Below are positions 4,051-55,850 of a DNA stretch of 64,000 nucleotides, piece after piece. The notes under the pieces were generated by a model. It had not been told where the DNA came from, did no database searches, and saw only the letters and a list, made by a program, of their open reading frames with translations. How positions within the stretch are numbered: position 1 is the first letter of the stretch; each line of letters begins with the position of its first letter. The translations under genes were made by a program, and so were the position numbers. Source of the stretch: Acidimicrobiales bacterium (GTDB lineage: Bacteria; Actinomycetota; Acidimicrobiia; Acidimicrobiales; Bin134); assembly GCA_965208785.1 (NCBI GenBank), contig OZ242356.1, forward strand, positions 447,890-511,889, read 5' to 3'.

Positions 4051-4836
4051 CTACTGCGTTGGCTTTCGGCCGACCACGGCGATCGAGACCGTGCTCATCA
4101 TGACAAATCCAGGCTCGCGAACCTGTGCCAGGGCGGTCTCGCCGTCCTCGGCGGTCACCAGACCGGCCTCCACCAGCCGGGGAATGGCGCGCTCCAAGGC
4201 CATGAACCACCACTCCCCGCCCGGCTCTCCGGGCCGCATGGCCCAAACATCGCCGATGACGTCGATGTCGGCCGCGCCCAGGTCGCGGAAGCGGCCGGGC
4301 AGCCGCACTCCGTAGTCGGCGTCGCGCCACTCGGTGGTGACCCCCGCCGACACGTAGCGGTGAACGGTGGCGTAGGGCTCGGGCAGGGTCTGCTCGGCGA
4401 ACGATCCGAAAGCGCCGTCCTCCACTGCCAGCCAGCCGCCGGGCACCAGAGCCGCCCACAGCTTCTCCATAACCTGATCGCGCTCGGGCAGATGCTGGAG
4501 CACGGCCCTGGCGTGGATGAGGTCGAACGCCGAATCAGGAACGGGGTCGCGGGTCACGTCGTGTTGTTCCACCACCGCGTTGGGCAGCACCGACCGGTGG
4601 AACTGGAGGTCGACGTCGGTGGACCACACCGACCCCTCGGGACCGACCCGTCTGCCGAGCCATGCCGACACCGTGCCCCCTCCCGCGCCCACCTCCCAGC
4701 ACCGCCACCCGGGGCACAGCCCCGTGCTGTCCAGAATTCGCCGCGTTCGGGGATCGCGGGCCTCGGCCAGCATCTCAAGGCGGTGGCGCTCAATCTCCAC
4801 CTCTTCGTCGCGAACCCCGTATCGATCATCGGCCAT
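4051..4836 (-). CDS. Class I SAM-dependent methyltransferase (alternative start 4896 in the duplicated RBS/ATG)
   Basis: WEVGAGGG motif I, FDLIHARAVL, LVPGG; GAGGAG RBS before ATG. Confidence 0.85.
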   Translation of the reverse strand: MADDRYGVRDEEVEIERHRLEMLAEARDPRTRRILDSTGLCPGWRCWEVGAGGGTVSAWLGRRVGPEGSVWSTDVDLQFHRSVLPNAVVEQHDVTRDPVPDSAFDLIHARAVLQHLPERDQVMEKLWAALVPGGWLAVEDGAFGSFAEQTLPEPYATVHRYVSAGVTTEWRDADYGVRLPGRFRDLGAADIDVIGDVWAMRPGEPGGEWWFMALERAIPRLVEAGLVTAEDGETALAQVREPGFVMMSTVSIAVVGRKPTQ

Positions 4837-4912
4837 AGGCTCTTCTCCTCTGCAACTGGCATTGGGCTCCAAGACGGCTGGGCCTGCGCCAGCCATAGGC
4901 GCTTCTCCTCTG
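4832..4912. repeat. 21-bp direct repeat (RBS+ATG) flanking a 39-bp insert, period 60
   Basis: GCCATAGGC(T/G)CTTCTCCTCTG at 4832-4852 and 4892-4912. Confidence 0.85.
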
Positions 4913-4944
4913 TGTCCGGTGACGCCATACCGTATCTTCGTAGT

Positions 4945-6183
4945 GTGGGCCAGCACTCAGAGGACACTTTGCCGCAGGCCGCGTTCCGCGCCGAGGTGCG
5001 GGGCTGGCTCGAGGCCAGAGCCCCGCGGCGTGAGGAGGGCGATGGATGGTCAACCCGAACCACCCACCCCGATGCCGCCGCCGAGAGAGCCCATATGGAC
5101 CGCTGTCGAGCCTGGCAGCGGGAGCTGTACGAGGGCGGTTGGGCGGCCATCGACTGGCCGGTTGACCACGGCGGGCGGGGCGGCGAGCGGTGGCAGCGGC
5201 AGATCTTCCAGCAGGAGGTGGCCCAATTCGATGTGACCAGCGGATTTCTGGCCGCCGGCATCGCACTGGCCGGGCCGGCCATCGGCCGCTTCGGCACCGA
5301 CGAGCAGCGGGCGCGCCACCTCAAGCCCATGCTGCGGGGCGATATGGTGTGGTGCCAGCTTTTCAGCGAGCCCGGCGCCGGGTCGGATATGGCCAACCTC
5401 GCCACCCGGGCCGAGCGCGACGGCGATGAGTTCGCAGTGAACGGACAGAAGGTGTGGAACACGTCGGCCCACCTGTCGGACTGGGGAATCCTGCTGGCCC
5501 GCACCGACCCCGACGCCCCCAAGCACAAGGGCATCACCTTCTTTTTGGTCGACATGTCCACCCCCGGAGTGGACCCCCGGCCCATCCGCACCATCAACGG
5601 CTCGGCCCACTTCAATGAGGTGTTCTTGAGCGACGTGCGGATTCCAGCCGACAATGTGTTAGGCGAGGTGAACGGCGGATGGGCGGTGGCCCGGCTGGTG
5701 CTGGCCAACGAGTCCGCCATGATCGGCGGGGGCATGGACCGGGCCGACAGCGCGGCCAACCTGATCGGGCTGGCTCGGCGATGGGGCGCGTCCCGCAACC
5801 TGGTGGTCCGCCAAGAGCTGGCTGAGGCCTACACCAGAGAGAAGCTGCTCGAATGGATGGGCCGGAGGCTTCAGGAGGATGCGCGGAGGGGGCGTCGGCC
5901 CGCCTTCGACGGCTCGGTGCTGAAGGTGTACTGGTCGGAGAGTCGTCGTGATCGAGGCGACCTCGGCGTGGGGATCCTCGGAGGTTTCGGGGTGGCCGGC
6001 GACCACGCCGACACGGGAGTTTGGGCCAACGAGGTGCTGAACCGATTCTGGGGCTCCATTGGGGGAGGCACCGACGAGGTACACCGCAACAACATGGCCG
6101 AGCGAGTGCTCGGACTGCCGCCCGAGCCCCGGGTGGACAAACACATTCCGTGGCGGGAGCAGGTGGGCGGTGTCGGAAGATGA
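4945..6183 (+). CDS. Acyl-CoA dehydrogenase family protein
   Basis: WCQLFSEPGAGSD, NGQKVWNT, FNEVFL, IGGGTDEV; start estimated at GTG 4945. Confidence 0.93.
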   Translation: MGQHSEDTLPQAAFRAEVRGWLEARAPRREEGDGWSTRTTHPDAAAERAHMDRCRAWQRELYEGGWAAIDWPVDHGGRGGERWQRQIFQQEVAQFDVTSGFLAAGIALAGPAIGRFGTDEQRARHLKPMLRGDMVWCQLFSEPGAGSDMANLATRAERDGDEFAVNGQKVWNTSAHLSDWGILLARTDPDAPKHKGITFFLVDMSTPGVDPRPIRTINGSAHFNEVFLSDVRIPADNVLGEVNGGWAVARLVLANESAMIGGGMDRADSAANLIGLARRWGASRNLVVRQELAEAYTREKLLEWMGRRLQEDARRGRRPAFDGSVLKVYWSESRRDRGDLGVGILGGFGVAGDHADTGVWANEVLNRFWGSIGGGTDEVHRNNMAERVLGLPPEPRVDKHIPWREQVGGVGR

Positions 6184-6225
6184 CTCGCACCGGCTGCGGG
6201 CATTTCCCTCGATCGCGGCAATATC

Positions 6226-6825
6226 ATGGCTGACCAAGCCACTTTTGCCGACCAGGCCATGGTCTACATGGACCAACTCTACTCGGCGGCCCGGCGTATG
6301 ACCCGCAATGCAGCAGATGCCGAAGACCTGGTGCAGGAAACCTACCTGCGGGCCTACCGCGGCTTCGGCAGCTTCCAGCAGGGCACCAACCTGCGGGCCT
6401 GGCTGTTCCGCATTCTCACCAATGCGTTCATCAATTCGTATCGGAGCAAGCAGCGCAAGCCGAAGTCGGTCGATTTGGCCGATGTCGAGGATCTGTATCT
6501 GCACCAGCGACTGGCGGGCGACGTTCGGGCCGCGCTGGGGGCCAGCGCCGAAGACGTGCTGATGGATTCGATCACCGAGTCGGAGATCGTGGACGCCCTG
6601 GAGTCGCTGCCCGAGGAGTACCGGATAGCCGTGCTGTTGGCCGATGTAGAGGGTTTTGCCTACAAGGAGATAGCCGAGATACTCGGCATTCCCATAGGAA
6701 CGGTCATGAGCAGGCTCCATCGGGGAAGAAAAACACTCCAAAAGCGGTTGTTAGAGTTCGGAACAGCGCGGGGCTGGGTGGCCCAACCCGGTCCCGCCCA
6801 AGCGCCGGCTGCGGCTGGCCAGTGA
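6226..6825 (+). CDS. sigH: ECF sigma factor, SigH/SigR family
   Basis: [39 protein letters not shown]. Confidence 0.88.
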
Positions 6826-6842
6826 TTTTCGGAGGCACCGCG

Positions 6843-7127
6843 ATGAGCAGAGACCGGCCTTGCTTGGGGGTTCCCAACCAGTGCGATTACTCGCGCGAGC
6901 TCATCGCAATGGCTCTGGACGGGCAACCGACACTGGAGGGCCTCAACCGGGCCCGAGCCGAACTGGGCGACTGCCTCCCGTGCGCGCAAGCTCTCGACGT
7001 CGAGGTTCGCTTCAAGCTGGCCATGAACCAGGCCGGACGAGTATCGGCGCCCGCCACCTTGCAAACCCGCATCACCGAGACCCTCCAGCGCGTCGAGCTA
7101 GATGATCTGGGCATCCAAGACTTCTGA
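6843..7127 (+). CDS. Anti-sigma factor, RshA/RsrA-like, with atypical ZAS motif
   Basis: Downstream of sigH, GGAGG RBS, ExxxCxxC in place of HxxxCxxC, APATLQTRI C-terminal motif. Confidence 0.75.
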   Translation: MSRDRPCLGVPNQCDYSRELIAMALDGQPTLEGLNRARAELGDCLPCAQALDVEVRFKLAMNQAGRVSAPATLQTRITETLQRVELDDLGIQDF

Positions 7128-7286
7128 GCGTGTCCCATCATCGACCTGGAAGACCATGTGGCTGACCAACTGAGATGATCTGGGCATCCAAGACTTCTGA
7201 GCGTGTCCCATCATCGACCTGGAAGACCATGTGGCTGACCAACTGAGATGATCTGGGCATCCAAGACTTCTGAGCGTGTCCCATCA
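7100..7286. repeat. R-S-R-S-R structure: three 41-bp repeats and two identical 32-bp inserts, period 73
   Basis: AGATGATCTGGGCATCCAAGACTTCTGAGCGTGTCCCATCA at 7100, 7173 and 7246; insert TCGACCTGGAAGACCATGTGGCTGACCAACTG. Confidence 0.97.
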
Positions 7287-7330
7287 CTGCCCGCGTGGAG
7301 TCGGCCCGAGCAGACCACTAGGGTGAGCGC

Positions 7331-7507
7331 ATGGAATTGATCGCGGCGGTGGTGTGGCACTGGTGGATCGCCCTGCTGCTGGTTATTGGCACGGTTCCTC
7401 TGGTCATCGCCACCATCGTCGGCTACTTCACCAAGGTGGTCGCACCCCGCTACAACAGTCGGCACCAGCGGGAAACCAGATCTCAGAGTGCCGCCGAAAC
7501 CGACTAG
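7331..7507 (+). CDS. Small membrane protein, 58 aa (not in ORF track)
   Basis: MELIAAVVWHWWIALLLVIGTVPLVIATIVGYFTKVVAPRY...; one hydrophobic segment; fills the gap before the next gene. Confidence 0.7.
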   Translation: MELIAAVVWHWWIALLLVIGTVPLVIATIVGYFTKVVAPRYNSRHQRETRSQSAAETD

Positions 7508-7525
7508 AAGCGACAGGATTCCCCG

Positions 7526-8614
7526 ATGGTTGCGGCGGCTGAGCCTGTCGACTGGCGGCTGGCGGAGCGAGTGGCCAAGAGAGTCGGGGGCCACGAGCCG
7601 TTTCTCGACTCCTACCACTACCGCAGCCTCACCCCCGAGCTGATCGAGCTGACCGCCCAAGCTGAGGAACTGGTAACCGCCGAAACCGGGCTGAAGTCAA
7701 CCGCGGGAGCGGCCCGGGCCCAGGTGACCACCCGAGCCCAATGGGTGGACGCCAACGTGGCCTCCTTCCAGCGGCTGCTGCGCCCGGTGACGGCCAAGAT
7801 GGCCGAGCGGGTGTCGCGCTCGTGGCTGGCCCCGGTTGCCCAGCGGGTGAGCGGCACCGAGGTCGGGGCGGTGCTGGGCTGGATGTCCACCCGGGTGCTG
7901 GGCCAGTACGACCTGCTCATCATCGAGGACGAGCGCCCCGAAGACCAGGACATGGTCTACTACGTGGGCCCCAACGTGATGGCCATTGAGCACAAGTACG
8001 GCTTCGACGCCCACCAGTTCCGACTCTGGCTGGCCCTGCACGAGACCACCCATCGGGCCCAGTTCACCGGCATCGAATGGCTGCGGCCCCACTTCCTGAG
8101 CTTGGTGCAAGAGGCCCTTGATGCCGCCGAGCCCGATTTGGAACACTTCAGGGCCGTGGCCAAACAGGTGCTCGAAGCCCGGCGGCGAGGCGACGACCTG
8201 CTGGCCGATGGAGGTCTGCCCGCCCTGTTGGCCACTCCCGAGCAAAAGGCGGTGCTGGATCGCATCGGCGGCATGATGAGCCTGCTGGAGGGCCACGGCG
8301 ACATCACCATGGACCGGGCCGGGGCCGGCCATATCCCCGACGCCAGCCGGTTTGCCCGGGTGCTGCGCCAACGCCGCAACTCGGCCAAGGGGGTGTCCAA
8401 GCTGGTGCAGCGCATTATCGGTATCGAGGCCAAGCTCAACCAGTACGCCGCCGGGGAGGCATTCATCGAGACGGTGGAGTCCCGGGGGGGCGCTGAGTTG
8501 CTCAACCGGGTGTGGGAGTCACCTGAGCGGCTTCCCTCCATGACCGAGATCCGCAATCCCCAGCAATGGATCGATCGGGTCAACGGCGCTCCCGTCCTCA
8601 CCGGGCAAGACTGA
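7526..8614 (+). CDS. Zinc-dependent metalloprotease/hydrolase (DUF2342-like)
   Basis: VLGQYD, LHETTH (HExxH), MSLLEGHGD; usual position before tilS. Confidence 0.88.
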   Translation: MVAAAEPVDWRLAERVAKRVGGHEPFLDSYHYRSLTPELIELTAQAEELVTAETGLKSTAGAARAQVTTRAQWVDANVASFQRLLRPVTAKMAERVSRSWLAPVAQRVSGTEVGAVLGWMSTRVLGQYDLLIIEDERPEDQDMVYYVGPNVMAIEHKYGFDAHQFRLWLALHETTHRAQFTGIEWLRPHFLSLVQEALDAAEPDLEHFRAVAKQVLEARRRGDDLLADGGLPALLATPEQKAVLDRIGGMMSLLEGHGDITMDRAGAGHIPDASRFARVLRQRRNSAKGVSKLVQRIIGIEAKLNQYAAGEAFIETVESRGGAELLNRVWESPERLPSMTEIRNPQQWIDRVNGAPVLTGQD

Positions 8615-8638
8615 CGTGCTGCCGGCGGTGCCGGTTCG

Positions 8639-9499
8639 ATGATCTCCGACCTGCTCGAACGCTGCGCCTTTCCCCCGGCTGGCGCCGCGGTACACTGCGC
8701 GGTTTCGGGCGGTCCCGACTCGCTGGCCCTGTTGGTACTGGCCTGCGAGGCAGGCTGTCGGGTGACCGCCTGGCACGTGGACCACGGGCTGCGGCCGGGG
8801 TCAGCGGCCGAGGCCGACATGGTGGCTGCGGCCGCCGCCCGATGGGGTGCGGACTTCGAAGCACGCAGGGCGACGTGCGAGCACGGACCCAACCTGGAGT
8901 CCCGGGCCCGAGCTGCCCGCTACGCAGTGCTGCCCGAGGGGGTTCTCACCGGCCACACTGCCGACGACCAGGCCGAGACGGTGTTGTTGAACTTCATCCG
9001 CGGGGCCGGGCCGAGCGGACTGGCCGGCATCGACCCGGCCCGCCGCCCGCTGCTGGCCATGCGCCGGCGCGAGACCCAAGCGCTGTGCAACCACCTCGGC
9101 CTAGAACCGGTGCAAGACCCGTCCAACCTCGACCCCACCCATCGCCGCAACCGAGTCCGCCATGAGCTGTTGCCGCTGTTGTGCGACATCGCCGATCGCG
9201 ACGTGGTGCCGATCATCGCCCGCAGCGCCTCGCTGATGGGCGGCGTCCGAGACCTGCTCGACGAGCTGGCCGCCGCCATCGACCCTGCCGACGCCAAGGC
9301 GATGGCCAACGCACCCGCGGCCCTGGCCCAAGCGGCGCTGCGGCGGTGGATCCAGCGCGAGACCAACGCCGAGCACCCGCCTGATGCCGCGACCATCGAG
9401 CGGGTCATGGCCGTGGCCCGAAACGAGGCCCGATCCACTGAAATTGGCGGAGGCTGGCGGGTCACCCGATCTTCCCAACGGCTCGGCCTCAGCAGATAG
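8639..9499 (+). CDS. tilS: tRNA(Ile)-lysidine synthetase
   Basis: AVSGGPDS PP-loop, HVDHGLR, GHTADDQAET, RNRVRH. Confidence 0.95.
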   Translation: MISDLLERCAFPPAGAAVHCAVSGGPDSLALLVLACEAGCRVTAWHVDHGLRPGSAAEADMVAAAAARWGADFEARRATCEHGPNLESRARAARYAVLPEGVLTGHTADDQAETVLLNFIRGAGPSGLAGIDPARRPLLAMRRRETQALCNHLGLEPVQDPSNLDPTHRRNRVRHELLPLLCDIADRDVVPIIARSASLMGGVRDLLDELAAAIDPADAKAMANAPAALAQAALRRWIQRETNAEHPPDAATIERVMAVARNEARSTEIGGGWRVTRSSQRLGLSR

Positions 9500-9510
9500 G
9501 CGCCACTAGG

Positions 9511-10077
9511 TTGACCGCCGTGTCCAGCGCGCCAGACCGCGGCAGCGGCGACCCCGGCCCGGTCCTCATTTCCCACGATGAGCTGACGGCCTGCATCGCC
9601 GACCTCGGCGCGCACATCACCGCCGACTATCAGGGGCGGGCGCCGCTGCTGGTGGGCGTGCTCAAGGGCGCCTTCATGTTCATGGCCGATTTGGCCCGGG
9701 CCATCAGCCTGCCGGTGGAGTTCGACTTCATGGCGGTGTCGTCGTATGGAAGTTCCACCCGCACAAGCGGCGTGGTGCGCATTGTCAAAGACCTCGACCT
9801 CGACCTGGCCGGGCGCGACGTGATCTTGGTGGAAGACATCATCGACAGCGGCCTGACCCTCAACTACCTCCGCAAGAACCTTGCCGCCCGCAACCCGGCA
9901 AGCCTGGAGGTGTGCGCTCTTTTGATACGCAAGGGCCGTCAGTACGAAGACCTCGACCTGCGTTACACCGGCTTTGAGATCCCGCCCGACTTCGTGGTCG
10001 GCTACGGCCTCGACGTCGGCGAGCGCTATCGCCAACTCCCCCACATCTGCCAGTACCAGCCAAACGGCAACTCATAG
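9511..10077 (+). CDS. hpt: Hypoxanthine phosphoribosyltransferase
   Basis: VGVLKGA, VEDIIDSGLTL, FVVGYGLD. Confidence 0.97.
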   Translation: MTAVSSAPDRGSGDPGPVLISHDELTACIADLGAHITADYQGRAPLLVGVLKGAFMFMADLARAISLPVEFDFMAVSSYGSSTRTSGVVRIVKDLDLDLAGRDVILVEDIIDSGLTLNYLRKNLAARNPASLEVCALLIRKGRQYEDLDLRYTGFEIPPDFVVGYGLDVGERYRQLPHICQYQPNGNS

Positions 10078-10091
10078 AAATAACTGAAATA

Positions 10092-10117
10092 CATCTTGCT
10101 TTTGCGAGCAAGGTGTG
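10092..10117 (+). terminator. Stem-loop after hpt
   Basis: ACATCTTGCT-TTTGCG-AGCAAGGTGT inverted repeat; no U-tract. Confidence 0.4.
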
Positions 10118-10177
10118 GCAGATTGAGGACATCGGAGCGACTCTACGGCTCCCTCCCCAACCTTTTGGGCACAACTC

Positions 10178-10891
10178 ATGCGGATGGCAAGCGAGGATCG
10201 CCGCCGACAACTGCCCTGGGTGGCACTGGGGCTGACCGTCACCCTCACCGCAGCAATCATCTTCGCCCTATGGGCGTCGTCGCTCAGCAATCGAACTGCG
10301 GTGGCGGTGGCGGCCCGTGACATCGCCGGCGGCTCGATGGTCGACATCGGCGACCTCCGAGCCGTCGAAGTGGCCAGCGGACAAGGGGCGGGGTTTGTGC
10401 CGATGGCCGATTTGGAGTCCGTCGTCGGTCGCACCGTCCGATCCTCGGTGCCCGAGGGGGCGATCCTTCACCCGGGCCTCCTGTCGGCAAGCACGCCGAT
10501 CGACCGGGGAAAGGCCGTGGTCGGCGTCGTGCTGCGACCGGGCGAATACCCGATTTCCCACCTCGGCCCAGGCCAGTTCGTCGGCGTGGTGGTTTTCGCC
10601 GACGAGCATCGCGAACCCAGCGCCGCGGCCGGCGACCGGCGGTTGAGTCGGGCTGATGGGCCCGACGCAGCCAACACCCTCATCCAGGCCGAGGTGGCCG
10701 AGGTGAGCAAGCTGCTCGACTCCGGCCAAGAGGCACTTTTTGTGTCGCTGTTGGCCTCGGCCGATGATGCTGTGCCCATCAGCAGGGCCGCTGCGGCCCG
10801 GGAGCTGCGCTTGATTCTGCTGCCCGAAGAATCCCGGCCGGCCAGCAGCCTGCTGAGCCCCGATCCAGCGCTGGCCGGAGCAGCACGATGA
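10178..10891 (+). CDS. SAF-domain/CpaB(RcpC)-like Tad accessory protein
   Basis: N-terminal TM, VAVAARDIAGG...DLRAVEV SAF motif; first gene of the Tad cluster. Confidence 0.75.
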   Translation: MRMASEDRRRQLPWVALGLTVTLTAAIIFALWASSLSNRTAVAVAARDIAGGSMVDIGDLRAVEVASGQGAGFVPMADLESVVGRTVRSSVPEGAILHPGLLSASTPIDRGKAVVGVVLRPGEYPISHLGPGQFVGVVVFADEHREPSAAAGDRRLSRADGPDAANTLIQAEVAEVSKLLDSGQEALFVSLLASADDAVPISRAAAARELRLILLPEESRPASSLLSPDPALAGAAR

Positions 10892-11634
10892 GCGTCATCG
10901 CGGTGGGGAGCGCCAAAGCCAGTCCGGGGGCGACCAGCCTCTCGGTTGGCCTCGGCCTGTCATGGGAAGCGATCACCGGGCGCCGAGCAGTTCTGGTGGA
11001 GGCAGACAGCGACGGCGGGGTTTTGGCGGCCCGCTTCGGGCTGGCCCTCACTCCCTCCCTGGTGGAGTTTTCCGGCACAACCCGACATGAGCTGACGATC
11101 AACCGGCTGGAGGCCAGCAGCCAACTGCTGGCCGGTCAATTGCCCGCCCTCGTCGCCCCTGGATGCGGAGAAACCACTGCTCTGGTGCTGGACTCGATGG
11201 CAACTCGATTGGCCGACGGCCTTGGCCGCCTCGACGACATCGACGCCGTAGTGGACATCGGACGGGTGCGGTCGCATTCACCTGCTGCTGAGTTGGTCGA
11301 CCGATGCGATCTGCTGGTGCTCGTTGCCCAACCTCAATTCGAACACCTTGTTCCGCTGGTCCATCAAGCCCGAAGAGTGGCCTCTCGCGACATTCCGACT
11401 GCACTGGTTTGCGTGGGCGACCGGCCATATCCGCCAACGGAGATGGCAAAGGCGTCCCAACTCGATCTTCTGGGGATCATGGCTCATGAGCCCAGGGTGA
11501 TTCAGGCACTGAGGGGCGGCCTGCCCGCCAACCGGCGCCACTGCCGGCTGTTGCTGTGGAGAACCCTGGGCGAGCTCGTTCAGCGGATCCACTACCGCGT
11601 GCAGTCCCCCGCAACCGGCCATGCGGTCGCTTAG
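10888..11634 (+). CDS. MinD/ParA-like (CpaE/TadZ-type) protein
   Basis: SAKASPGATS deviant Walker A, LVEADSDGG, VVDIGR. Confidence 0.75.
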   Translation: MSVIAVGSAKASPGATSLSVGLGLSWEAITGRRAVLVEADSDGGVLAARFGLALTPSLVEFSGTTRHELTINRLEASSQLLAGQLPALVAPGCGETTALVLDSMATRLADGLGRLDDIDAVVDIGRVRSHSPAAELVDRCDLLVLVAQPQFEHLVPLVHQARRVASRDIPTALVCVGDRPYPPTEMAKASQLDLLGIMAHEPRVIQALRGGLPANRRHCRLLLWRTLGELVQRIHYRVQSPATGHAVA

Positions 11635-11643
11635 GCAACGCCG

Positions 11644-12828
11644 ATGACCGCCTCCACGCACATCGACCGGGTGCTGGCCATGGTCACCAGTGAATTCGAA
11701 CGGGCGGAAGCGAGCCAGCTTGGTGATCGGCTAGCGCAAAAGGCCATGGCCGGGCAGTTCATTCTGGAGGCGCTCGACGCCATCGCCGCTGAGCGGGCAA
11801 AGGCGTTCTTGCCCCCTATCGACAGCGCCGAAGAGTCCTTCATCACCGAAGAGGTGCTGGCCACTCTGTTCGGGCTCGGATCCATAGAGCGGCTGTTGGC
11901 TGACGACTCCGTGGAGAACGTGAGCATCAACGGCCACGACACGGTTTGGGTACACCACGCCGGCGGGGTCAAGCGCCGGGCCGCCCCCGTAGCCAGTTCG
12001 GACGATGAGTTGGTGGCGCTCATCCGCAAGGCGGCTGCCCGGCTAGGCCGCAACGAAAGGCGGTTCGACCTTGCCAACCCGTTTCTTGATTTGCAGTTGC
12101 CCGACGGATCCCGTCTGAACGCGGTGATGGCGGTATCGGAGCGCCCGGCGGTGTCAATTCGCCGTCATCGCCACGAGCGGGTGACCCTGGACGACTTGTG
12201 CGAGCTGGGCACCCTCGACGAGGCGCTCCGAGACTTCTTGGGCGCTGCCGTGCAAGCTCGAAGGAGCATCATCATCTGCGGTGGAACCAACGCGGGCAAG
12301 ACAACGCTCCTGCGGGCCCTTCTGAACGTCTGCGACCCCGATGAGCGGCTGATCACCATTGAGGATCGGTTGGAATTGAGCCTGGCCGCCGACCCCGACC
12401 GGCACCGCGACGTGATCGAGATGGAAACCAGGACAGCCAACATCGAGGGTTCAGGTGGCATCACCATGCAGCAACTGGTGCGCAATGCCTTGGCCATGTC
12501 TCCCGACCGGTTGATTGTGGGCGAGGTGAGAGGTCCCGAGGTGGTGGACATGCTGGCCGCGCTGTCCACCGGAAACGACGGCTCGATGTGTACCATCCAC
12601 GCCAACTCGTCCCAGGCGGCTTTCAGCAAGATCGCCACCTACGCGCTGCGGTCCGCAGAGCGCATACCGGTAGAAGCCACCAACCGGATGATTGCTGAGA
12701 GCATCGACTTTGCGGTCCATGTAAGCAGAGGGCGCGACGGCCGTAGGCGAGTGAACTCGGTACGAGAGGTCACCGGCGCCTCGATGGGCGAAGTCAAAAG
12801 CGTCGAAGTGTTCAAGGACCAGAAATGA
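11644..12828 (+). CDS. tadA: Tad pilus assembly ATPase CpaF/TadA
   Basis: GGTNAGKTT, ITIED, MSPDRLIVGEVRG, TIHANS. Confidence 0.93.
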   Translation: MTASTHIDRVLAMVTSEFERAEASQLGDRLAQKAMAGQFILEALDAIAAERAKAFLPPIDSAEESFITEEVLATLFGLGSIERLLADDSVENVSINGHDTVWVHHAGGVKRRAAPVASSDDELVALIRKAAARLGRNERRFDLANPFLDLQLPDGSRLNAVMAVSERPAVSIRRHRHERVTLDDLCELGTLDEALRDFLGAAVQARRSIIICGGTNAGKTTLLRALLNVCDPDERLITIEDRLELSLAADPDRHRDVIEMETRTANIEGSGGITMQQLVRNALAMSPDRLIVGEVRGPEVVDMLAALSTGNDGSMCTIHANSSQAAFSKIATYALRSAERIPVEATNRMIAESIDFAVHVSRGRDGRRRVNSVREVTGASMGEVKSVEVFKDQK

Positions 12829-13712
12829 CCTCGCTGCTCGGAGCACTGCTAGGAGCCCTCGCGGGCAGCGGAATGTTCACAGCCATCATCGGCTGGCGAG
12901 GTCTGCCGCGGTGGTCGAAAAAGGGTGGCCTGCTGGTGCTTGAGAGGCTTCGGGGGCCAATTCCGCCACTGGCTCTCCGCTTGGCCATCGCGGGTGCGGG
13001 CTTCGTCGTCGGCACGGCGCTGACCGGATGGTTCGCGGCCGGGCTCATAGCCGGCATAGCCGGTTTCAGTTCGCCAACCGTCATAGGCGCCAAAGCAAGC
13101 CGAGACCGAGAGGTCGATCGTATGACAGCACTGGCAACCTGGGTGGAGATGGTGCGGGACACGACCAGCGCAGCATCAGGGTTGACCGAGACATTGAAGG
13201 CCACCGCGGCCACTGCACCGATGGCCATACGCATCCCGGTGCAGCAACTGGCGGCGCGAGCGGAACGGGAACCGCTGCCCGACGCTTTGGCCAAATTCGC
13301 CGACGAGGTAGACCACGGAGTCGCCGACAGCATTGCGGTCACGCTCCGACTGGCGGCTGCCAACCAAACGGGACCATTGCGGGAGACGCTGGCCGATCTT
13401 GCTGAGAACACCCGCCAAGAAGTCTCAATGCGATTGAGGATAGAGGCCTCTCGAGCCCGGCAATTCACTTCCGCCCGCTTCATCGCCGGCGTTGTGGCCG
13501 TGTTCTCCGTTGGCATGGTGGTCTTCAGCAGACCGTACTTGGCCCCCTACGACACAGCGTGGGGGCAGGTGGCCCTTGGCGTGATCGGCGCCCTCTTCAT
13601 CGGGTCGGCAATCGCCCTTGTGAAGATGGGCCAGTTCAACAGCCCGCCTCGAATCCTCGACATGCGGCAATCCCTTGAGGTCTCGAGCACAACCAGCGGG
13701 GGCCGGAGATGA
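12825..13712 (+). CDS. tadB: TadB-like type II secretion F-family membrane protein
   Basis: TM pattern, YLAPYDTAWGQ motif, follows tadA. Confidence 0.8.
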   Translation: MTSLLGALLGALAGSGMFTAIIGWRGLPRWSKKGGLLVLERLRGPIPPLALRLAIAGAGFVVGTALTGWFAAGLIAGIAGFSSPTVIGAKASRDREVDRMTALATWVEMVRDTTSAASGLTETLKATAATAPMAIRIPVQQLAARAEREPLPDALAKFADEVDHGVADSIAVTLRLAAANQTGPLRETLADLAENTRQEVSMRLRIEASRARQFTSARFIAGVVAVFSVGMVVFSRPYLAPYDTAWGQVALGVIGALFIGSAIALVKMGQFNSPPRILDMRQSLEVSSTTSGGRR

Positions 13713-14587
13713 CCGTCGGCCTAGCCCTGGGCACCGTGATCGGGCTCGGGCTCGCCGTGGTTTTCTGGGGGCTGTTCCCTCCCCGAGAACCGTTGCAGTC
13801 GCGGCTCAGCGAGCTCGATCGGCCAACGGACCAGCGCCGCCGAGTAGCAACGCGCCGCGAGAAGATCGGCCGCGCCGCAGTGCAATCGCTCAGACCCCTG
13901 GGATTGCGGGGTCGCCGGATCGAGCGCGACCTGCGAGTTGCCAGCCAAAGCCTCGAAGAACTGGCCGTCGCCAAACTGGGGATGATGCTGCTCGGCGCCG
14001 GACTGCCAGCGGGGATATGGATCATCGCCTGGTTCAGCCGAGCCTGGGTTTCTCCCGGCCTGGTGGCGGCGGCATCCACCCTGGGGGGAGCGCTGCTTTT
14101 CCTTGTCCCTGATCTGTCGTTGCGAGAAAGAGCCCGGAACCGGCATCGCGAGCTGCGCCACCAGATCAGCGTCTATTTGGATCTCGTGGGCCTTCACTTG
14201 TCAGGGGGCGCGGGAATGGAGCGGGCCCTGAGCGACTCGGCTGCGCTGGGCACTGCCTGGGGGTTTGTCGAGATCAAGCGGACACTGCGGCAAGCCCAAT
14301 TGTCCAACGAGCCGCCGTGGACTGCCCTGGAGAGACTGGGACGCGAGCTCGGCTCGGCAGAGCTCCAAGAGTTGGCCGCATGGCTATTGCTGGCCGGCAC
14401 GTCTGGATCCCGCGTGCGGTTGTCTCTGCACACCAAAGCCCGCGGCTTGCGAGAGCGGGCTCTGAACGAAGCGGAGACGGAGGCCCAGCAGTCCACAGAG
14501 CGCATGTCGCTGCCAGTCGTGCTCATGTTCTCGGGGTTTCTGGGACTGATCGGCTATCCGGCCATTGCCGCCATCGTCAGCTCATGA
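13709..14587 (+). CDS. tadC: TadC-like type II secretion F-family membrane protein
   Basis: YLDLV..LSGGAG, PPWTALERLG, TERMSLPVV. Confidence 0.82.
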   Translation: MTVGLALGTVIGLGLAVVFWGLFPPREPLQSRLSELDRPTDQRRRVATRREKIGRAAVQSLRPLGLRGRRIERDLRVASQSLEELAVAKLGMMLLGAGLPAGIWIIAWFSRAWVSPGLVAAASTLGGALLFLVPDLSLRERARNRHRELRHQISVYLDLVGLHLSGGAGMERALSDSAALGTAWGFVEIKRTLRQAQLSNEPPWTALERLGRELGSAELQELAAWLLLAGTSGSRVRLSLHTKARGLRERALNEAETEAQQSTERMSLPVVLMFSGFLGLIGYPAIAAIVSS

Positions 14588-14668
14588 GTGTCCGGGGACC
14601 CACAGTCCCGAGGCTTCCCCTTATCGGCGCATTGAACCGCCCCAACCAAAATCCCGTAGGAGACACAA

Positions 14669-14869
14669 GTGAAAACGGCATTCAAATTCCATCTTCTGGT
14701 TACCGCAGCGTGGGCCAAGTTCGAGCAGCGAGCCCACAAGGTCTGGCAAAGCGAGCGGGGCGACGTGACCTCAACGGTGATCATCATCGCGGTTCTCGTG
14801 GCCGCCGCGGTGGCCGCTGGCGTGGTCATCACAAGCTTCGTTTCCGGGCAGACCAGCAAGATCAGCTGA
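14669..14869 (+). CDS. Flp-type pilin
   Basis: 66 aa, ERG|DV prepilin cleavage site followed by a hydrophobic helix; AGGAG RBS. Confidence 0.75.
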   Translation: MKTAFKFHLLVTAAWAKFEQRAHKVWQSERGDVTSTVIIIAVLVAAAVAAGVVITSFVSGQTSKIS

Positions 14870-14980
14870 TCGACCGCAATGGGACCAGTCCGCCATTGGA
14901 ATGCGAGCGCGGCGAAGTCACTGCTGATCGACCGCAATGGGACCAGTCCGCCATTGGAATGCGAGCGCGGCGAAGTCACT
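14865..14980. repeat. Perfect 58-bp tandem duplication at the pilin stop / TadE start
   Basis: GCTGATCGACCGCAATGGGACCAGTCCGCCATTGGAATGCGAGCGCGGCGAAGTCACT at 14865 and 14923. Confidence 0.97.
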
Positions 14981-15331
14981 ACCACCGTTCTGGTCGTTCC
15001 CATTGCCATGTTCTTGATTTTTGTCGTTGTCCAAGCTGCTCTGGTCTTCCACGCCCAGGCCATTGTCGATGCCGCGGCCCAAGACGGCGCCCAGGCTGGT
15101 CAGGGCGAGACCGGCACGGAGGAAGCCGTTCGAACCGCGGTTCAGTCGGTTATCGGAACAAGCGCAGAGAACCTGCTGGCAAATGTAGAGGTCTTTGTCG
15201 ACACGGGCTCATCGCTGTCCTCGGTTACCGTTCAGGCCACCGTGAAGTCGCTGATCCCCGGATACGCCCCCGCGGTCTCGTCCACCGCGTCCGGACCCCG
15301 CGAGATCTTCATGCCTGAGAGCGCAAGATGA
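14879..15331 (+). CDS. TadE-like pseudopilin
   Basis: ERG|EVTTTVLVVP hydrophobic helix, AAAQDGA; start uncertain because of the duplication. Confidence 0.8.
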   Translation: MGPVRHWNASAAKSLLIDRNGTSPPLECERGEVTTTVLVVPIAMFLIFVVVQAALVFHAQAIVDAAAQDGAQAGQGETGTEEAVRTAVQSVIGTSAENLLANVEVFVDTGSSLSSVTVQATVKSLIPGYAPAVSSTASGPREIFMPESAR

Positions 15332-15777
15332 GAGGAGCAACTCGGTGGCCTCGACCAGCCCATGGGGCCGGTGAGCGAGGCAGCAGCGTGATCGGACTGG
15401 TGGTCCTCACCCCGGTCATGGCCTTGCTCTTTTTCTTTGTCGTAGCCGCCGGCCGAGTGGGTGTGGTCGAGAGCAAGTTGACCGCTGCCGCCCGCGGCGC
15501 GGCCCGCGCCGCCTCCCAAGCCAGGTCGACGGACGCGGCCCGCGCCGCGGCCACTGCGATAGCCGAGACCTCTTTGGGCCACTTGGAGGTGGAGTGCCAA
15601 GGCGGGCCCCAGGTTCGTGTTCTAAAGATGGACCTCCGGCCAGGAGGAAGAGTGCAGATTCAGGTTTCATGCACCGTGCGGCTGTCGGATCTGACCATCA
15701 CCGGCGTTCCCGGAAGCCGAATAATGACAGCAGAGTCTGCATCAGTGGTGGACCGCCATCGAAGCGGAAGCCAGTAG
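15328..15777 (+). CDS. TadE-like pseudopilin
   Basis: ERG|SSVIGLVVLTP, AARGAARAAS, C-terminal VVDRHR. Confidence 0.8.
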   Translation: MRGATRWPRPAHGAGERGSSVIGLVVLTPVMALLFFFVVAAGRVGVVESKLTAAARGAARAASQARSTDAARAAATAIAETSLGHLEVECQGGPQVRVLKMDLRPGGRVQIQVSCTVRLSDLTITGVPGSRIMTAESASVVDRHRSGSQ

Positions 15778-15779
15778 TC

Positions 15780-16241
15780 GTGTACCAGCGCAGATCTAAC
15801 AGGCGCTCCGGCTCGACGCCAGCACCGAGACACCGCCAACGGGGGCAGGTCACCGTGATGTTTGTCGTTTTGACTGTGGCACTGGTCATGCTCGGCGGAT
15901 TGGCATTCGACGGCGCCCAGATTTTGAATGCCAGACGGAAGGCCTCGACATTGGCCCTTGAGACAGCCAGAGCCGGGGCACAGGCAATCTCCATTGAATC
16001 GCTGTACCCGAAGCCGGCGACCGTGCTCGTTGATTCATCAAAGGCTCAAATCGCCGCGTCCGACTATTTGGGCCAGCACGATGACTGGTCGATCTCGGTT
16101 CGGGGCGACACGGTTTCAGCAACTGTGTGGCTGACCCAGCCCCTTCAAATCCTCTCTTTTCTGGGCATGGATTCACGTCGCGTAGCCGGCACCGCCACTG
16201 CCCGGGCAGTGCAAGGCATCCGAACAGGAGATGATCTATGA
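15780..16241 (+). CDS. TadG-like pilus assembly protein
   Basis: QRG|QVTVMFVV, GLAFDGA, ARAGAQ; start estimated at GTG 15780. Confidence 0.75.
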   Translation: MYQRRSNRRSGSTPAPRHRQRGQVTVMFVVLTVALVMLGGLAFDGAQILNARRKASTLALETARAGAQAISIESLYPKPATVLVDSSKAQIAASDYLGQHDDWSISVRGDTVSATVWLTQPLQILSFLGMDSRRVAGTATARAVQGIRTGDDL

Positions 16242-20775: not shown

Positions 20776-20901
20776 GGTGATCCTCCCCGTGAGTGGTGAC
20801 AGATATGACGAAAGCCAAGCTCGCTGAGTTCCCCGAGCGATCAACGAAACTGTGGCCGCGGTGGATACCCTCAAAGTATCGGAGGTGCGGCTGACGACAC
20901 A

Positions 20902-21453: not shown

Positions 21454-21548
21454 ACGACGAACGCGGCCACATGACCCTTCCAACATCGGCCAAATGGACC
21501 ACCCGGCTGCGGAAAAGACCATGAACGACGAACGCGGCCACATGACCC
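21445..21548. repeat. 33-bp direct repeat around a 38-bp insert, period 71
   Basis: AGACCATGAACGACGAACGCGGCCACATGACCC at 21445 and 21516. Confidence 0.95.
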
Positions 21549-33810: not shown

Positions 33811-33817
33811 GCGGGAT

Positions 33818-47377: not shown

Positions 47378-48325
47378 TCAAGTTGCTCCCACTTGGCTGC
47401 GGAGGTTTTCGATCCAATTGCGGGCCTCAGACCACGCGGAGGTTGCCACGTTGGTTCGCTCTTCGTTTCCCCTGGTGGAAGCGGGATAGGAGCCGAGAAA
47501 CTTCACCTCGCCGTGCTTGGCAACGATGCTGGTCAGGCAGTCGGCCACCAGTTGATCGGCCACATGGCCCTCCAGGTCGATGAGGAAGCAATAGTCGCCC
47601 AGTGCCTTCTTGGTGGGCCGCGACTCCAGCTTGGTGAGATTGATGGACCGGGCTGCAAATTCGGCGAGGATGCCCATGAGCGACCCCGACCGATCGGCGC
47701 GCTGAAAGACCACGATGGACGTTTTGTCATGGCCGGTGGGCGCCGGAACTCCAGTGTGGGCCACCGCCACGAACCGGGTTTGGTTTTCGGGGTGGTCCTC
47801 GATGTCGGTGGCGATCATGTCCAGCCCGTAGATTTCCTGCGACAAGGCGGTACCGATGGCAGCCGCGGTCCTGTCATTGGAGACGGCGAGATCACGAGCC
47901 GCGGCAGCGGTGGAGTTGGCCGCGATCTCCTCGGCGTGGGGGAGCTTCTCGGTCAAATAGCGTCGACACTGAGCAGTTGCGACCGGGAAGCTGATGACGC
48001 GGCGAATCTCATCCATCGAGGTTCCGGAGAAGCCCAATAGATGGAGGTGGACGTCGATGACCACTTCTCGCTGAATGAGCAGGTCGTGCTCAAAGATGAG
48101 GGCGTCGAGGGCCACATTGACCGTCCCCTCGATGGAGTTCTCGATAGCGGTAAAGCCCAATGCGGCCCGGCCGTCGGCGGCGGCACCAAGGACTTCGGGG
48201 ATCGACCGGCACAAGAGGCGGTCGGCTTCAGCCAAATCGGCTTGGGTGAGAAGCGCTTCTTCGGTGAATGTGCCCGGAGGTCCCAGGTAGGCCACCTGGC
48301 TTGCGGATCGGACAGCGGCAGTCAC
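47378..48325 (-). CDS. pheA: Prephenate dehydratase with ACT domain
   Basis: AYLGPPGTFT, IENSIEG, NQTRF, INLTKLESRP, FLGSYP. Confidence 0.96.
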   Translation of the reverse strand: MTAAVRSASQVAYLGPPGTFTEEALLTQADLAEADRLLCRSIPEVLGAAADGRAALGFTAIENSIEGTVNVALDALIFEHDLLIQREVVIDVHLHLLGFSGTSMDEIRRVISFPVATAQCRRYLTEKLPHAEEIAANSTAAAARDLAVSNDRTAAAIGTALSQEIYGLDMIATDIEDHPENQTRFVAVAHTGVPAPTGHDKTSIVVFQRADRSGSLMGILAEFAARSINLTKLESRPTKKALGDYCFLIDLEGHVADQLVADCLTSIVAKHGEVKFLGSYPASTRGNEERTNVATSAWSEARNWIENLRSQVGAT

Positions 48326-55073: not shown

Positions 55074-55128
55074 CGCGGCCAACGTTATCGAGGGGTTGCT
55101 CGGAGTTCGAAGCGCGTATCCTTTGTCC

Positions 55129-55404
55129 ATGGCCAAACCGACCAAGCGCAGAGTGCAGGGTGGTCGGGTTACCCCGAGGGGCACCCGACCCGAAAACGAG
55201 GTGGCGCCCCGGGTGCCGGTCTCAGCAGAGAAAATCAGCCCGACTTGGGTGCCGGTGCTGATGCTTACCCTGCTGGCGTTGGGGGCAATCATGATTGTGC
55301 TGAACTACGTCGCTCTGCTGCCGGGCGACACCAGCAACTGGTACCTGCTGGGGGGCCTTGGCCTGCTGCTGGCTGGCATGCTGGTGGCCACGCAGTGGCA
55401 TTAG
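55129..55404 (+). CDS. crgA: Cell division protein CrgA
   Basis: SPTWVPVLM, two C-terminal TMs, NWYL, TQWH; divergent from trpG. Confidence 0.85.
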
Positions 55405-55451
55405 CCACCCTGATCGTTGTCTAGTTACGGCTTTGTAGTTTGTTCCCAGGT

Positions 55452-55472
55452 TTATCCACAGGTTGTGGATAG
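55452..55472. promoter_or_regulatory. Pair of DnaA boxes outside oriC
   Basis: TTATCCACA 55452-55460 and TGTGGATAG 55464-55472, in inverted orientation. Confidence 0.75.
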
Positions 55473-55478
55473 TTGGCC

Positions 55479-55736
55479 CTACTCGTCTATGGGGGCGACG
55501 AAGTCCATGTCGTCGCCGCAGTGACGGGGAGGCTCAGGGTCTTCCTCGGGAGCTGTGGTCATACGGACCTCGGCGTAGCAGATCGAGCATCGGTACGTGA
55601 TCTTGACCCTGCGAAGCTGGCCTGGCGGCGGTGGCGGCGGCAGCGGCTGGCGAATCATCAACAGCACACCGATGCCGACCCGGATCAGGGTCATTCCCGC
55701 AAGGATGGCGATCAGCACGCTGAGCCAGAGAGGCAC
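55479..55736 (-). CDS. Small membrane-anchored putative zinc-ribbon protein
   Basis: TM, poly-Pro linker, YRCSIC...PRHCGDDM. Confidence 0.75.
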   Translation of the reverse strand: MPLWLSVLIAILAGMTLIRVGIGVLLMIRQPLPPPPPPGQLRRVKITYRCSICYAEVRMTTAPEEDPEPPRHCGDDMDFVAPIDE

Positions 55737-55738
55737 AT

Positions 55739-55850
55739 GTCCAGCCTAGATGGGCCGGTACTGTGGGCCCATGGATGAGCTCGGCCGGCGCGGGCGGCCC
55801 CTCCGAGACGGTCCAGCCTAGATGGGCGGTACTGTGGGCCCATGGATGAG
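55739..55850. repeat. 41/40-bp direct repeat around a 31-bp insert, period 72
   Basis: GTCCAGCCTAGATGGGC(C)GGTACTGTGGGCCCATGGATGAG at 55739 and 55811. Confidence 0.95.

Follow-up and report, generated by a model that had tools for sequence, protein, structure and literature searches.

What process places an unrelated insert between two copies of ordinary local sequence, at site after site along a bacterial chromosome? The window analysed here, 64,000 nucleotides of the chromosome of a sponge-symbiotic member of Acidimicrobiales (contig OZ242356.1 of assembly GCA_965208785.1, positions 447,890 to 511,889), had been described in a first-pass annotation as holding five loci of one shared architecture, and this description is borne out. 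All five show the order A-B-A, in which A is the duplicated stretch and B the insert, each at the place given there (Table 1), and they are not explained by chance, a shuffled genome having 0 interrupted repeats of period 55-80. At the 7100 locus, the annotation did not note the presence of two identical inserts; the A-B-A-B-A arrangement is a single insert that was duplicated afterwards, not two acquisitions.

Table 1. Coordinates of the interrupted repeats, a contrast locus and a candidate insert source in the window
Feature	Position	Strand	Structure
7100 locus	7100-7286	.	A-B-A-B-A; perfect 73-bp unit, 2.6 copies
7100 locus, A (41 nt)	7100-7140, 7173-7213, 7246-7286
7100 locus, B (32 nt)	7141-7172, 7214-7245		The two B are mutually identical
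18330 locus	18330-18440	+	A-B-A, period 72; A1 18330-18368, B 18369-18401 (33 nt), A2 18402-18440
18515 locus	18515-18619	+	A-B-A, period 72; A1 18515-18547, B 18548-18586 (39 nt), A2 18587-18619
21440 locus	21440-21548	+	A-B-A, period 71; A1 21440-21477, B 21478-21510, A2 21511-21548
55740 locus	55740-55850	+	A-B-A, period 71-72; A1 55740-55779 (40 nt), B 55780-55811 (32 nt), A2 55812-55850 (39 nt)
14865 locus	14865-14980	.	Plain tandem duplication, 58 nt x 2, 100% identity; contrast case, not A-B-A
Candidate source segment of the 7100 insert	47549-47583	-	89% identity over 35 nt, 28/32 ungapped (G000:495438-495472, minus)

The scars alter real genes, namely a regulator (in its linker), a sigma/anti-sigma pair (at its junction) and a DoxX gene (at its start). 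Specifically, two of them lie in frame in the ORF at 16238-19351: the 18330 locus, with 82% identity between its A copies, amounts to a 24-residue insertion, and the 18515 locus, with A copies identical at 28/33 positions by hand count on the sequence, is located directly upstream of a weak Trans_reg_C match. At the 21440 locus, A carries the ATGA stop/start overlap between an ECF sigma gene (20902-21453) and the ORF that follows it, and its two copies are 95% identical with an exact core of 33 nt. The A copies of the 55740 locus differ by a 1-nt indel and include the start of the DoxX gene (55842-56354), and at the 7100 locus the TGA stop codon (7125-7127) with which the upstream gene ends lies within A.

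In relatives, a single A without B is found at 8/8 loci with an aligned orthologous site, comprising the five window loci and three further ones (a ninth locus, at 2004016, sits in a variable region and is outside this count); such empty alleles had been predicted. At the 7100 locus, five relatives align with one A present and the 146-nt B-A-B-A absent. One relative, G009, is shorter by exactly 72 nt at the 18330 locus and again at the 18515 locus. Flank alignments overlap by 33-39 nt in G018, G004, G010 and G001 at the 21440 locus, leaving a single A, and by 37-41 nt in 5/5 relatives at the 55740 locus, leaving a single A and no B. These observations support the view that unrelated DNA was inserted at each locus and the target duplicated. 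Contigs of two other sponge-metagenome studies contain the four window loci checked. An independent 92-nt metagenome contig covers A-B-A at 7111-7202, and contigs span the 18330 locus (X1, X3 and X2), the 18515 locus and the 21440 locus (X1 and X3) with 0 gaps.

Genome-wide, insertion-plus-duplication structures of period 55-80 are in excess of chance: there are 45 such interrupted repeats against 0 in the shuffled genome, which was the genome permuted by triplets within 300-nt blocks. Seven A-B-A-B-A loci, each with identical inserts, come in addition to the 45, and the symbiont carries ~50 of these scars. Outside this range, 20 interrupted repeats have a period of 20-54 and 14 a period of 81-200. 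A fixed period of ~72 bp, as first claimed, is contradicted by the distribution of 48 events, of which 21 fall into 70-75, 15 into 64-69 and 12 into 55-63; the peak that had been predicted for a genome-wide scan is present at 71-74, together with further modes at 65-66 and 59-63 that the prediction did not contain. In the 71-74 class (14 well-defined events), the median A is ~36-37 nt and the median B 36 nt, with A ranging over 33-45 nt and thus not strictly 36. The median A is ~34 nt in the 64-69 class (A+B ~33-34 + 32) and ~32 nt in the 59-63 class (A+B ~32 + 30), and inserts outside the 71-74 class are ~20-35 nt. The total period is steadier than A or B alone, for example 41+32, 45+28 and 39+33, and the lengths of A and B appear to co-vary over the classes, as would follow if a single complex, through its two active sites, fixed both.

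The events are scattered across the whole chromosome. In the 64-69 class, 14/15 events lie within 1.50-2.45 Mb, a region that does not stand out in GC content or in its identity to relatives, and the A copies of this class are as mutually similar as those of the 70-75 class. Over all events, A-copy identities run from 82% to 100%, close to the range from identical to about 85% described at first, and indicate that the process has recurred. The events avoid gene interiors, with 14/52 classed inside ORFs, in keeping with the claim that they are kept to gene junctions or in-frame positions.

Two readings would deny that these structures are insertions in a real genome. An artefact of assembly or sequencing in this one assembly would fit an excess that is specific to it among the four genomes scanned; however, the four window loci checked are present in contigs of the two other studies and so are not an assembly artefact, contigs are interrupted at the 58-bp duplication of the 14865 locus where it would break them, the copies of A differ by now in many cases (82-97% identity), events inside genes are in frame, and we regard this reading as close to negligible. 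Replication slippage or tandem duplication with later divergence, or repetition in protein-coding sequence, is very improbable. True tandem duplications are indeed many in the genome, including those at 14865, 22019 (33x2) and 28367 (36x2) in the window, which have other periods, and a few low-scoring "interrupted" hits (A of 20-22 nt) sit in proline-rich coding repeats. Slippage, however, duplicates a whole unit and gives a match of at least one period, which loci like these three alone fit; at 79/139 single-hit loci, the match falls short of the period by 9 nt or more. The A copies, often 100% identical, flank a B unlike A or the flanks, relatives have neither B nor the second A, and periods of 71, 73, 65 and 62 are not multiples of three.

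The dimensions of the largest class lead to the CRISPR-Cas system of the same genome. The annotation had seen no cas gene in the window; cas genes are present in the genome, ~560 kb outside it, as one locus of a type I-G-like system with a Cas4-Cas1 fusion and Cas2. Cas4/1 and Cas2 are apparently intact, Cas4/1 having 2 private changes at otherwise invariant columns compared with 1-28 in the other 14 orthologues. The genome has only one Cas1 and only one array (1008910-1010095), with 17 repeats of 36 nt, spacers of 36-38 nt and a period of 72-74. In the comparison with a real array that had been proposed, this unit agrees with the 71-74 class, which suggests that the CRISPR integrase also inserts elsewhere in the chromosome. 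The dispersed loci themselves are not canonical CRISPR arrays: each has its own A, the multi-copy loci (n=7) carry identical inserts, and none resembles the resident repeat or stands beside cas genes or a leader. By BLAST, the resident repeat matches the array alone, plus one 18-nt hit at chance level.

In line with the claim that the repeats are unrelated to each other, BLAST of 45 A sequences against the genome gave a long second copy elsewhere for only two. The inserts match each other by BLAST over only 10-16 nt, at chance level, and share no sequence, by which insertion of a MITE or IS element is rejected; neither a local template for the inserts nor a kinship to A was found. An origin by capture, as inferred at first, holds for some of them. 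Against the chromosome, 4/50 inserts beat all 500 shuffled controls and 2 more are borderline; the four resemble genes 40 kb to ~810 kb away at 82-97% identity, and none is an exact copy of host DNA, although self-derived fragments are common in naive CRISPR adaptation. At least 4/50 inserts are therefore diverged fragments of genes elsewhere and represent captured DNA; for 44/50, the search against the chromosome found no source. The candidate source of the 7100 insert is ~40 kb from the insertion, and the orthologous positions in relatives match the insert too. Another insert, with A copies identical at 38/38, is nearer to the allele of a congener (31/34) than to the host's own (28/34). Of the genuine spacers, 0/133 resemble host genes. 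No motif was seen at the event boundaries, and a search for a shared PAM, as the annotation had proposed, gave no PAM-like flank at the candidate sources (n=6).

We consider off-target integration by Cas4/1-Cas2 the best reading of these data, unproven and, in our judgement, with an even chance of being right. In the proposed mechanism, the A-B-A structures would be scars of cut-and-fill insertion: B, a fragment of ~30-38 nt from elsewhere, would be joined into staggered nicks ~33-38 bp apart in ordinary chromosomal DNA, and gap filling would duplicate the stretch between the nicks to give two A. The likeliest enzyme, at least for the 70-75-bp class, would be the symbiont's own adaptation integrase (the type I-G-like Cas4-Cas1 fusion together with Cas2), working outside its array. 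Some A-B-A would later become A-B-A-B-A, or be deleted, by recombination or slippage between the A copies, and selection would leave mainly events at gene ends, in intergenic positions or in frame. The relaxed-specificity Cas1-type integrase first proposed thus keeps its insertion architecture, its size match to the array and its captured inserts, and loses a shared PAM and a demonstrable dependence on Cas. Our inference is that the enzyme was Cas4/1-Cas2 and that all size classes come from a single enzyme.

Several observations stand against a Cas origin, and they bear on two further readings. The 55-69 classes hold 27/48 events with dimensions unlike any array seen in the genus, the A of the 71-74 class varies over 33-45 nt, the regional confinement of the 64-69 class is not predicted for a freely diffusing integrase, there is no boundary motif, PAM or exact host-derived insert, and event counts show no correlation with Cas1 presence in the four genomes sampled. 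Specifically, G010, which has the same Cas4/1 system and also an array, has 0 events of period 55-80 in 0.8 Mb, compared with 16 in the host genome (G000) under the same sampling; the Cas1-negative G001 has 3 in 1.2 Mb (19 in an equal sample of G000), and the 0.4 Mb sampled from the Cas1-negative G039 yield 1, a perfect 36+36+36 (4 in an equal sample of G000). A Cas-independent mechanism, an unrecognised integrase or repair pathway that joins short pieces of foreign DNA at staggered breaks and holds the summed length of insert and duplication to ~59-75 bp, could then have made all events, the match to the CRISPR unit being coincidental. It would accommodate the counts, the confinement of the 64-69 class, the three size modes of which one alone fits the array, and a total period better conserved than A or B separately. 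It would also suit the excess of plain short tandem duplications, which are ~2-3x commoner in G000 than in its relatives and hint at a broader tendency of this genome to gain or keep duplications. Nevertheless, we hold this reading to be unlikely, if by no means negligible: by our own rough estimate, the prior for a chance match to the 36 + 36-38 array that this genome carries is ~5-10%, and a candidate enzyme is missing, with matches to Ku in 0/40 genus genomes and to reverse transcriptase (RVT_1) in 0/4, a lack of rivals that we count in favour of Cas4/1-Cas2. We know of no bacterial pathway besides Cas1-type integrases that gives ~35-bp target duplications with ~35-nt inserts.

Alternatively, two or more adaptation modules may have acted, the resident I-G system making the 70-75 class and one or more other Cas1-Cas2 modules with shorter rulers the 59-69 classes, the latter being lost, plasmid-borne or active in a lineage that donated the 1.5-2.45 Mb region. 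Discrete size classes in which A and B shorten together, the limitation of the 64-69 class to one region, and a genus in which Cas1 is gained and lost often (present in 26/40 genomes, in two main types) would all fit. We nonetheless think this improbable. The genome has just the one Cas1 and array, the region in question does not differ in GC content or identity, and the similarity of the 64-69 A copies would make the loss very recent. Arrays beside either Cas1 type have periods of ~70-76, and none of period 60-67 occurs among the 16 arrays read at 19 Cas1 loci of relatives.

Compared with known systems, the scars resemble transposon and casposon insertions in that a staggered cut with fill-in leaves a copy of the target at either side of the insert. 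Known target-site duplications of transposons and casposons measure 2-15 bp, and all sites carry one and the same element, which encodes a transposase or borrows one; our loci have duplications of ~33-38 bp, and no two inserts are alike. Actinobacterial minisatellite (VNTR) loci such as MIRU are short intergenic repeats of 50-80 bp with variable copy number. The A-B-A-B-A loci behave as young VNTRs; VNTRs, however, are tandem copies of whole units, often in sequence families, whereas the present loci have 1.5 or 2.5 units and no shared sequence. Canonical type I-G (I-U) adaptation with a Cas4-Cas1 fusion offers the same dimensions (36-nt repeat, 36-38-nt spacer), the repeat-spacer-repeat layout and foreign inserted DNA. 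In contrast to it, each dispersed locus has its own local "repeat", without a leader or a shared repeat family, at gene ends or inside genes, and the share of inserts resembling host genes exceeds that of the genuine spacers.

The closest published case, as far as passages citing it report, is the off-target Cas1-Cas2 integration that gave "neo-CRISPR" loci in E. coli overproducing Cas1-Cas2, with "circumstantial evidence" alone in two other species (Nivala, Shipman and Church 2018, cited in 10.1101/148544, PMC7054753 and PMC6698737). As described there, it shares with our loci a spacer-sized insert at a non-CRISPR site, a duplicated target of repeat size and Cas1-Cas2 in the same genome, and in the 70-75 class insert and duplication match the resident array. 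The symbiont differs from that account in several ways. Its ~50 events, those checked being common to natural populations, fall into three size classes, and they give no sign of arrays growing where they sit, A-B-A-C-A not having been seen. A target motif could not be detected, and in the sampled relatives the events do not correlate with Cas1.

The same secondary accounts describe off-target spacer integration only for E. coli with overproduced Cas1-Cas2 and for in vitro reactions. We propose, tentatively and as something possible rather than probable, that in nature the integrase of CRISPR adaptation, or another enzyme that measures with a comparable two-site ruler, works as an insertional mutator across the genome. 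It would write foreign DNA, including that of related bacteria, into ordinary sites, creating peptide insertions of 20-24 residues, duplicated start or stop regions and small VNTRs that are fixed in the symbiont population; some scars do hold gene fragments resembling those of related bacteria. If Cas4/1-Cas2 is the enzyme, the scars would gauge what CRISPR adaptation costs in hidden mutations, as well as its creative side, and would be a natural record of raw spacer uptake, unfiltered by autoimmunity; if it is not, they would point to a new class of DNA-capture machinery that applies a molecular ruler to short foreign DNA. Either way, the question can now be put to the test, on a known list of sites and with a single candidate enzyme.

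The plain duplication at 14865 provides a point of comparison for the interrupted loci. Relatives have one copy of it, their alignments overlapping by ~57 nt, and the contigs of three runs are interrupted at 14894 and 14951, as expected for a 58-bp duplication.

Direct repeats are present at all five places in the window where the first-pass annotation had described a duplicated local target sequence (A) on either side of an unrelated insert (B) with a period (A+B) of about 72 nt, as established by repeat search, Tandem Repeats Finder and inspection of the sequences. The observation is confirmed and extends beyond the window. At the 7100 locus, the identity of the two inserts indicates one insert that was duplicated later.

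Repeat features of the window (coordinates count from the window start)
Feature	Position	Dimensions	Identity
A-B-A	18330	A 39 nt, B 33 nt, period 72	A copies 82% identical
A-B-A	18515	A 33 nt, B 39 nt, period 72	A copies 28/33 identical
A-B-A	21440	A 38 nt, B 33 nt, period 71	A copies 95% identical
A-B-A	55740	A 40 and 39 nt, B 32 nt	
A41-B32-A-B-A	7100-7286	73-bp unit, 2.6 copies	Perfect unit, both inserts identical
Plain tandem duplication, two copies	14865-14980	58 nt	100%
Plain tandem duplication, two copies	22019-22081	33 nt	100%
Plain tandem duplication, two copies	28367-28438	36 nt	100%
21-nt repeat	4832-4912	Period 60	

The host genome, a single contig of 3,535,727 bp with 65% GC, was scanned for high-identity matches at every period from 20 to 200, and a locus was termed interrupted (A-B-A) when the match fell short of the period by 9 nt or more. 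Of the 237 repeat loci in the scan, 139 show a single period and 79 of those 139 are interrupted, with a period of 55-80 in 45, 20-54 in 20 and 81-200 in 14. Shuffling the genome by triplets within 300-nt blocks leaves no interrupted repeat with a period of 55-80. Specifically, interrupted loci occur at periods 59 (4 loci), 61 (2), 62 (3), 63 (1), 65 (6), 66 (8), 67 (1), 68 (1), 71 (4), 72 (8), 73 (2), 74 (1), 75 (1) and 78 (2), and seven further loci are A-B-A-B-A with identical inserts (periods 73, 72, 73, 69, 66, 60 and 60). The genome-wide peak predicted at 71-73 does exist, but as only one of three modes. In well-defined events, A+B measures ~36-37 + 36 in the 71-74 class, ~34 + 31-32 in the 64-69 class and ~32 + 30 in the 59-63 class, A and B becoming shorter together across classes. 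The 64-69 class is strongly clustered, with 14 of its 15 events located within 1.50-2.45 Mb of the host chromosome, or 27% of its length (binomial P ~1e-7, for a region picked after the data had been inspected), and the 21 events of the 70-75 class are dispersed, 8 of them in that region. GC content and identity to relatives are ordinary there and offer no account of the confinement. The class counts comprise 48 events under the same inclusion rules as a set of 50 inserts, which excludes interrupted repeats with A shorter than 24 nt and to which the seven A-B-A-B-A loci and two older window loci were added by hand.

Congeneric genomes are syntenic with the host at 76-86% DNA identity, and the empty, single-copy alleles that the first-pass annotation had proposed to look for are seen in them at window loci and at three loci outside the window. 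In the alignment of the 7100 locus, five relatives carry one A, which contains the stop codon of the upstream gene, and lack the 146-nt B-A-B-A. Exactly 72 nt are missing in the alignment of relative G009 at each of 18330 and 18515. The two flank alignments of the relatives overlap by 33-39 nt at 21440 and, in 5/5 relatives, by 37-41 nt at 55740. Outside the window, relatives again carry one copy only at host positions 1995453 (period 66), 1995967 (period 68) and 2007491 (period 72); 1995453 was aligned base by base in four, and its flank alignments overlap in all five relatives searched. Locus 2004016, which sits in a variable region, was left out of this comparison.

Sponge-metagenome runs from several studies contain the window stretch, and contigs of two other studies and of the probable source were placed on window positions 5000-24000, a check made at the level of contigs and for window loci. 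A 92-nt contig of run X1 covers 7111-7202, that is, A-B-A; the 21440 locus is spanned without gaps by contigs of X1 and X3, and 18330 and 18515 by those of X1, X3 and X2. The contigs of three runs stop at 14894 and restart at 14951, the break expected for a 58-bp duplication. For the window loci checked, the contigs from other sponge-metagenome studies rule out an assembly artefact. Among the contig joints listed, none has the length of 71-73 or 146 nt that would mark an empty allele. In runs X11 and X2, contigs skip 248 nt at a joint crossing the 7100 locus (window 7096-7345); this joint may come from a different strain, or from a related organism whose intergenic region differs.

The inserts bear no detectable relation to their surroundings. 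When B was aligned with A, with its reverse, complement and reverse complement, and with both flanks, local alignment scores equalled those of permuted controls (34 loci), which dismisses a hidden relation between B and A; apart from extensions of A, no match to B of at least 17 nt lies within 1.5 kb, which dismisses local templating. In a permissive ungapped BLAST against the chromosome, 4 of the 50 inserts score 23-29, compared with a maximum of 21 in 500 shuffled controls, and two more score 21, level with that maximum. All chromosomal matches are diverged copies, 82-97% identical and 40 kb to 1.7 Mb distant; the first two sources lie 40 and 79 kb off, but the sensitive search placed others at 0.8-1.7 Mb, so that a preference for sources close to the insertions was rejected. 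Genuine spacers from arrays of the genus gave 0/133 chromosomal matches at a score of at least 22 in the same test. For most inserts no source was detected. In a 2.7-Mb sample of relatives' DNA, 16 of 52 random host 33-mers find a match, compared with one convincing match for 52 inserts (three when a low-complexity insert and the paralogue-derived 941710 insert are counted), which indicates that the genus core genome was not the source of most inserts. Two inserts had no exact match in genome, viral and metagenome collections, in a search of low power that possibly excluded the window's own records.

The clearest case is the insert at 1640612, where 34 nt from a class-III aminotransferase gene match the host copy at 28/34 positions and a congener's allele at 31/34, and the A copies of this locus are identical at 38/38. 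We infer from these identities that a related organism, rather than the host chromosome, probably supplied the fragment; alternatively, gene conversion may have kept the A copies identical. The 7100 insert has a diverged candidate source within the window (47549-47583, minus strand). Because the fragment end and the target share a 3-nt identity, A appears to be 41 nt long at this locus, and the true event was more likely about 38 + 35. At 941710-941796 (period 59), one of the four high-scoring cases, the insert is 30/31 identical to 140055-140085, 800 kb away, and the upstream flank of the source resembles the flank of the insertion site; B may therefore be native there, and the locus may reflect a different kind of event between paralogous sequences. 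Neither the 35 aligned events nor the 6 candidate sources show a target motif or a shared PAM, which the first-pass annotation had also raised, on inspection of boundaries and flanks with neither orientation nor true PAM to go by.

According to a crude GC3-based gene call (2878 ORFs, 78% of the genome), 14 of 52 events fall within ORFs, and several of these 14 are no more than 45 nt from a start that was over-extended; the other events cover gene starts or stops or sit between genes. The events at 18330 and 18515 are in-frame insertions of 24 residues in the linker of a 1037-aa ORF with a LysM domain and a weak Trans_reg_C match. At 21440 the duplicated stretch includes the ATGA in which the stop of an ECF sigma gene overlaps the start of the following ORF, and at 55740 it includes the start of a DoxX gene. 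Low-GC stretches occur at window 16001-18000, which covers the N-terminal part of the 1037-aa LysM ORF, and at 30001-34000 (52-56% GC, compared with 63-68% in the surroundings).

Cas1 and Cas2 each have a single match in the host genome, ~560 kb from the window, in an operon that encodes Cas3, a 780-aa protein without a Pfam match, a GSU0053-family protein, a weak GSU0054-family match, a 546-aa Cas4-Cas1 fusion (Cas4/1) and Cas2. From this gene set, we take the system to be type I-G (I-U)-like. The adjoining array comprises 17 repeats of 36 nt with spacers of 36-38 nt, and its period of 72-74 agrees with the dimensions of the 71-74 event class, a comparison that the first-pass annotation had proposed. 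The closest relatives of Cas4/1 in the genome collection are from sponge-associated Acidimicrobiales MAGs, several titled Candidatus Poriferisocius. The host Cas4/1 carries two private substitutions, within the range of its 14 orthologues, which lends no support to an aberrant integrase. All 17 repeats of the host array (stretch L003:13912-15115, host 1008910-1010106) start with A (ATTCGGGG...), whereas in the 12 other I-G-type arrays read in the genus (stretches L017-L030) the first base is G (GTTCGG...). This base lies at the junction of leader and repeat, and the change might influence on-target integration. The poly-C run is expanded in the last repeat of the host array, and a DUF222-HNH endonuclease ORF (L003:15240-16484) lies directly downstream.

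Slippage cannot be the origin of the A-B-A loci, since it would not place an unrelated B, missing from relatives, between A copies that are identical. End-joining capture is unlikely, with Ku found in 0/40 genomes of the genus, as is a reverse-transcriptase route, with RVT_1 found in 0/4 genomes. With slippage excluded and both Ku and RVT_1 missing, Cas4/1-Cas2 is the sole recognised enzyme left for joining short foreign DNA into staggered cuts. Rare off-target integration has been described in E. coli overproducing Cas1-Cas2, in section 16 of 10.1101/148544 and in passages of PMC7054753 and PMC6698737 on Nivala et al. 2018; the same excerpts mention new arrays being spawned and circumstantial evidence in two other species. 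Off-target integration in vitro is also reported at sites that share features with repeats (passages of PMC6698737), and the general idea of a ruler comes from a Cas1-Cas2/DEDDh integrase that is not type I-G (excerpts of PMC10284694). In the portions of the literature that the search returned, no report was found of many dispersed natural events in one genome, which falls short of proving that none exists. For the 70-75 class, the mechanism with the best support is off-target integration by the resident Cas4/1-Cas2, and we hold the chances that it applies to be about even.

The distribution of events among genomes bears on how far Cas4/1-Cas2 can account for them. Cas1 is found in 26/40 genomes of the genus, in two main types, a fusion (ORFs of 549-585 aa) and a shorter form (ORFs of ~362-369 aa), and arrays adjoining both types have periods of ~70-76. 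An identical scan of evenly spaced 20-kb samples for interrupted repeats with a period of 55-80 found 3 events in 1.2 Mb of the Cas1-negative congener G001 (19 in the host under the same sampling), 0 in 0.8 Mb of G010, which has the same Cas4/1 system and array (16 in the host), and 1 in 0.4 Mb of the Cas1-negative G039 (4 in the host). The sole G039 event, in a genome without a Cas1 match, is a perfect A36-B36-A36 (stretch L151:2178-2285). The excess of events is therefore specific to the host lineage and, in this small sample, does not track Cas1 presence. This cross-genome evidence, with the ordinary integrase, the lack of a boundary motif or PAM-like flank and the confinement of the 64-69 class, weighs against off-target Cas4/1-Cas2 integration as the whole story; together with the extra size classes, the counts favour another, unrecognised mechanism, which possibly made the events. 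Taken together, the phenomenon is real: captured DNA has been inserted repeatedly and specifically in this lineage, with target duplications of a ruler-like kind.

Short direct-repeat loci of all kinds are ~2-3 times more numerous in the host than in the congeners. Two-copy tandem duplications per megabase are ~2-10 times as frequent in the host as in three relatives sampled. Runs of 18-20 C occur at stretch L004:10490-10562. Additionally, a ~145-nt sequence at stretch L156:11557-11701 (host ~2005556-2005700) has matches of 78-95% identity at many separate sites in G039, G010 and G018; it may represent either a repeat dispersed in the genus or one of its small mobile elements.
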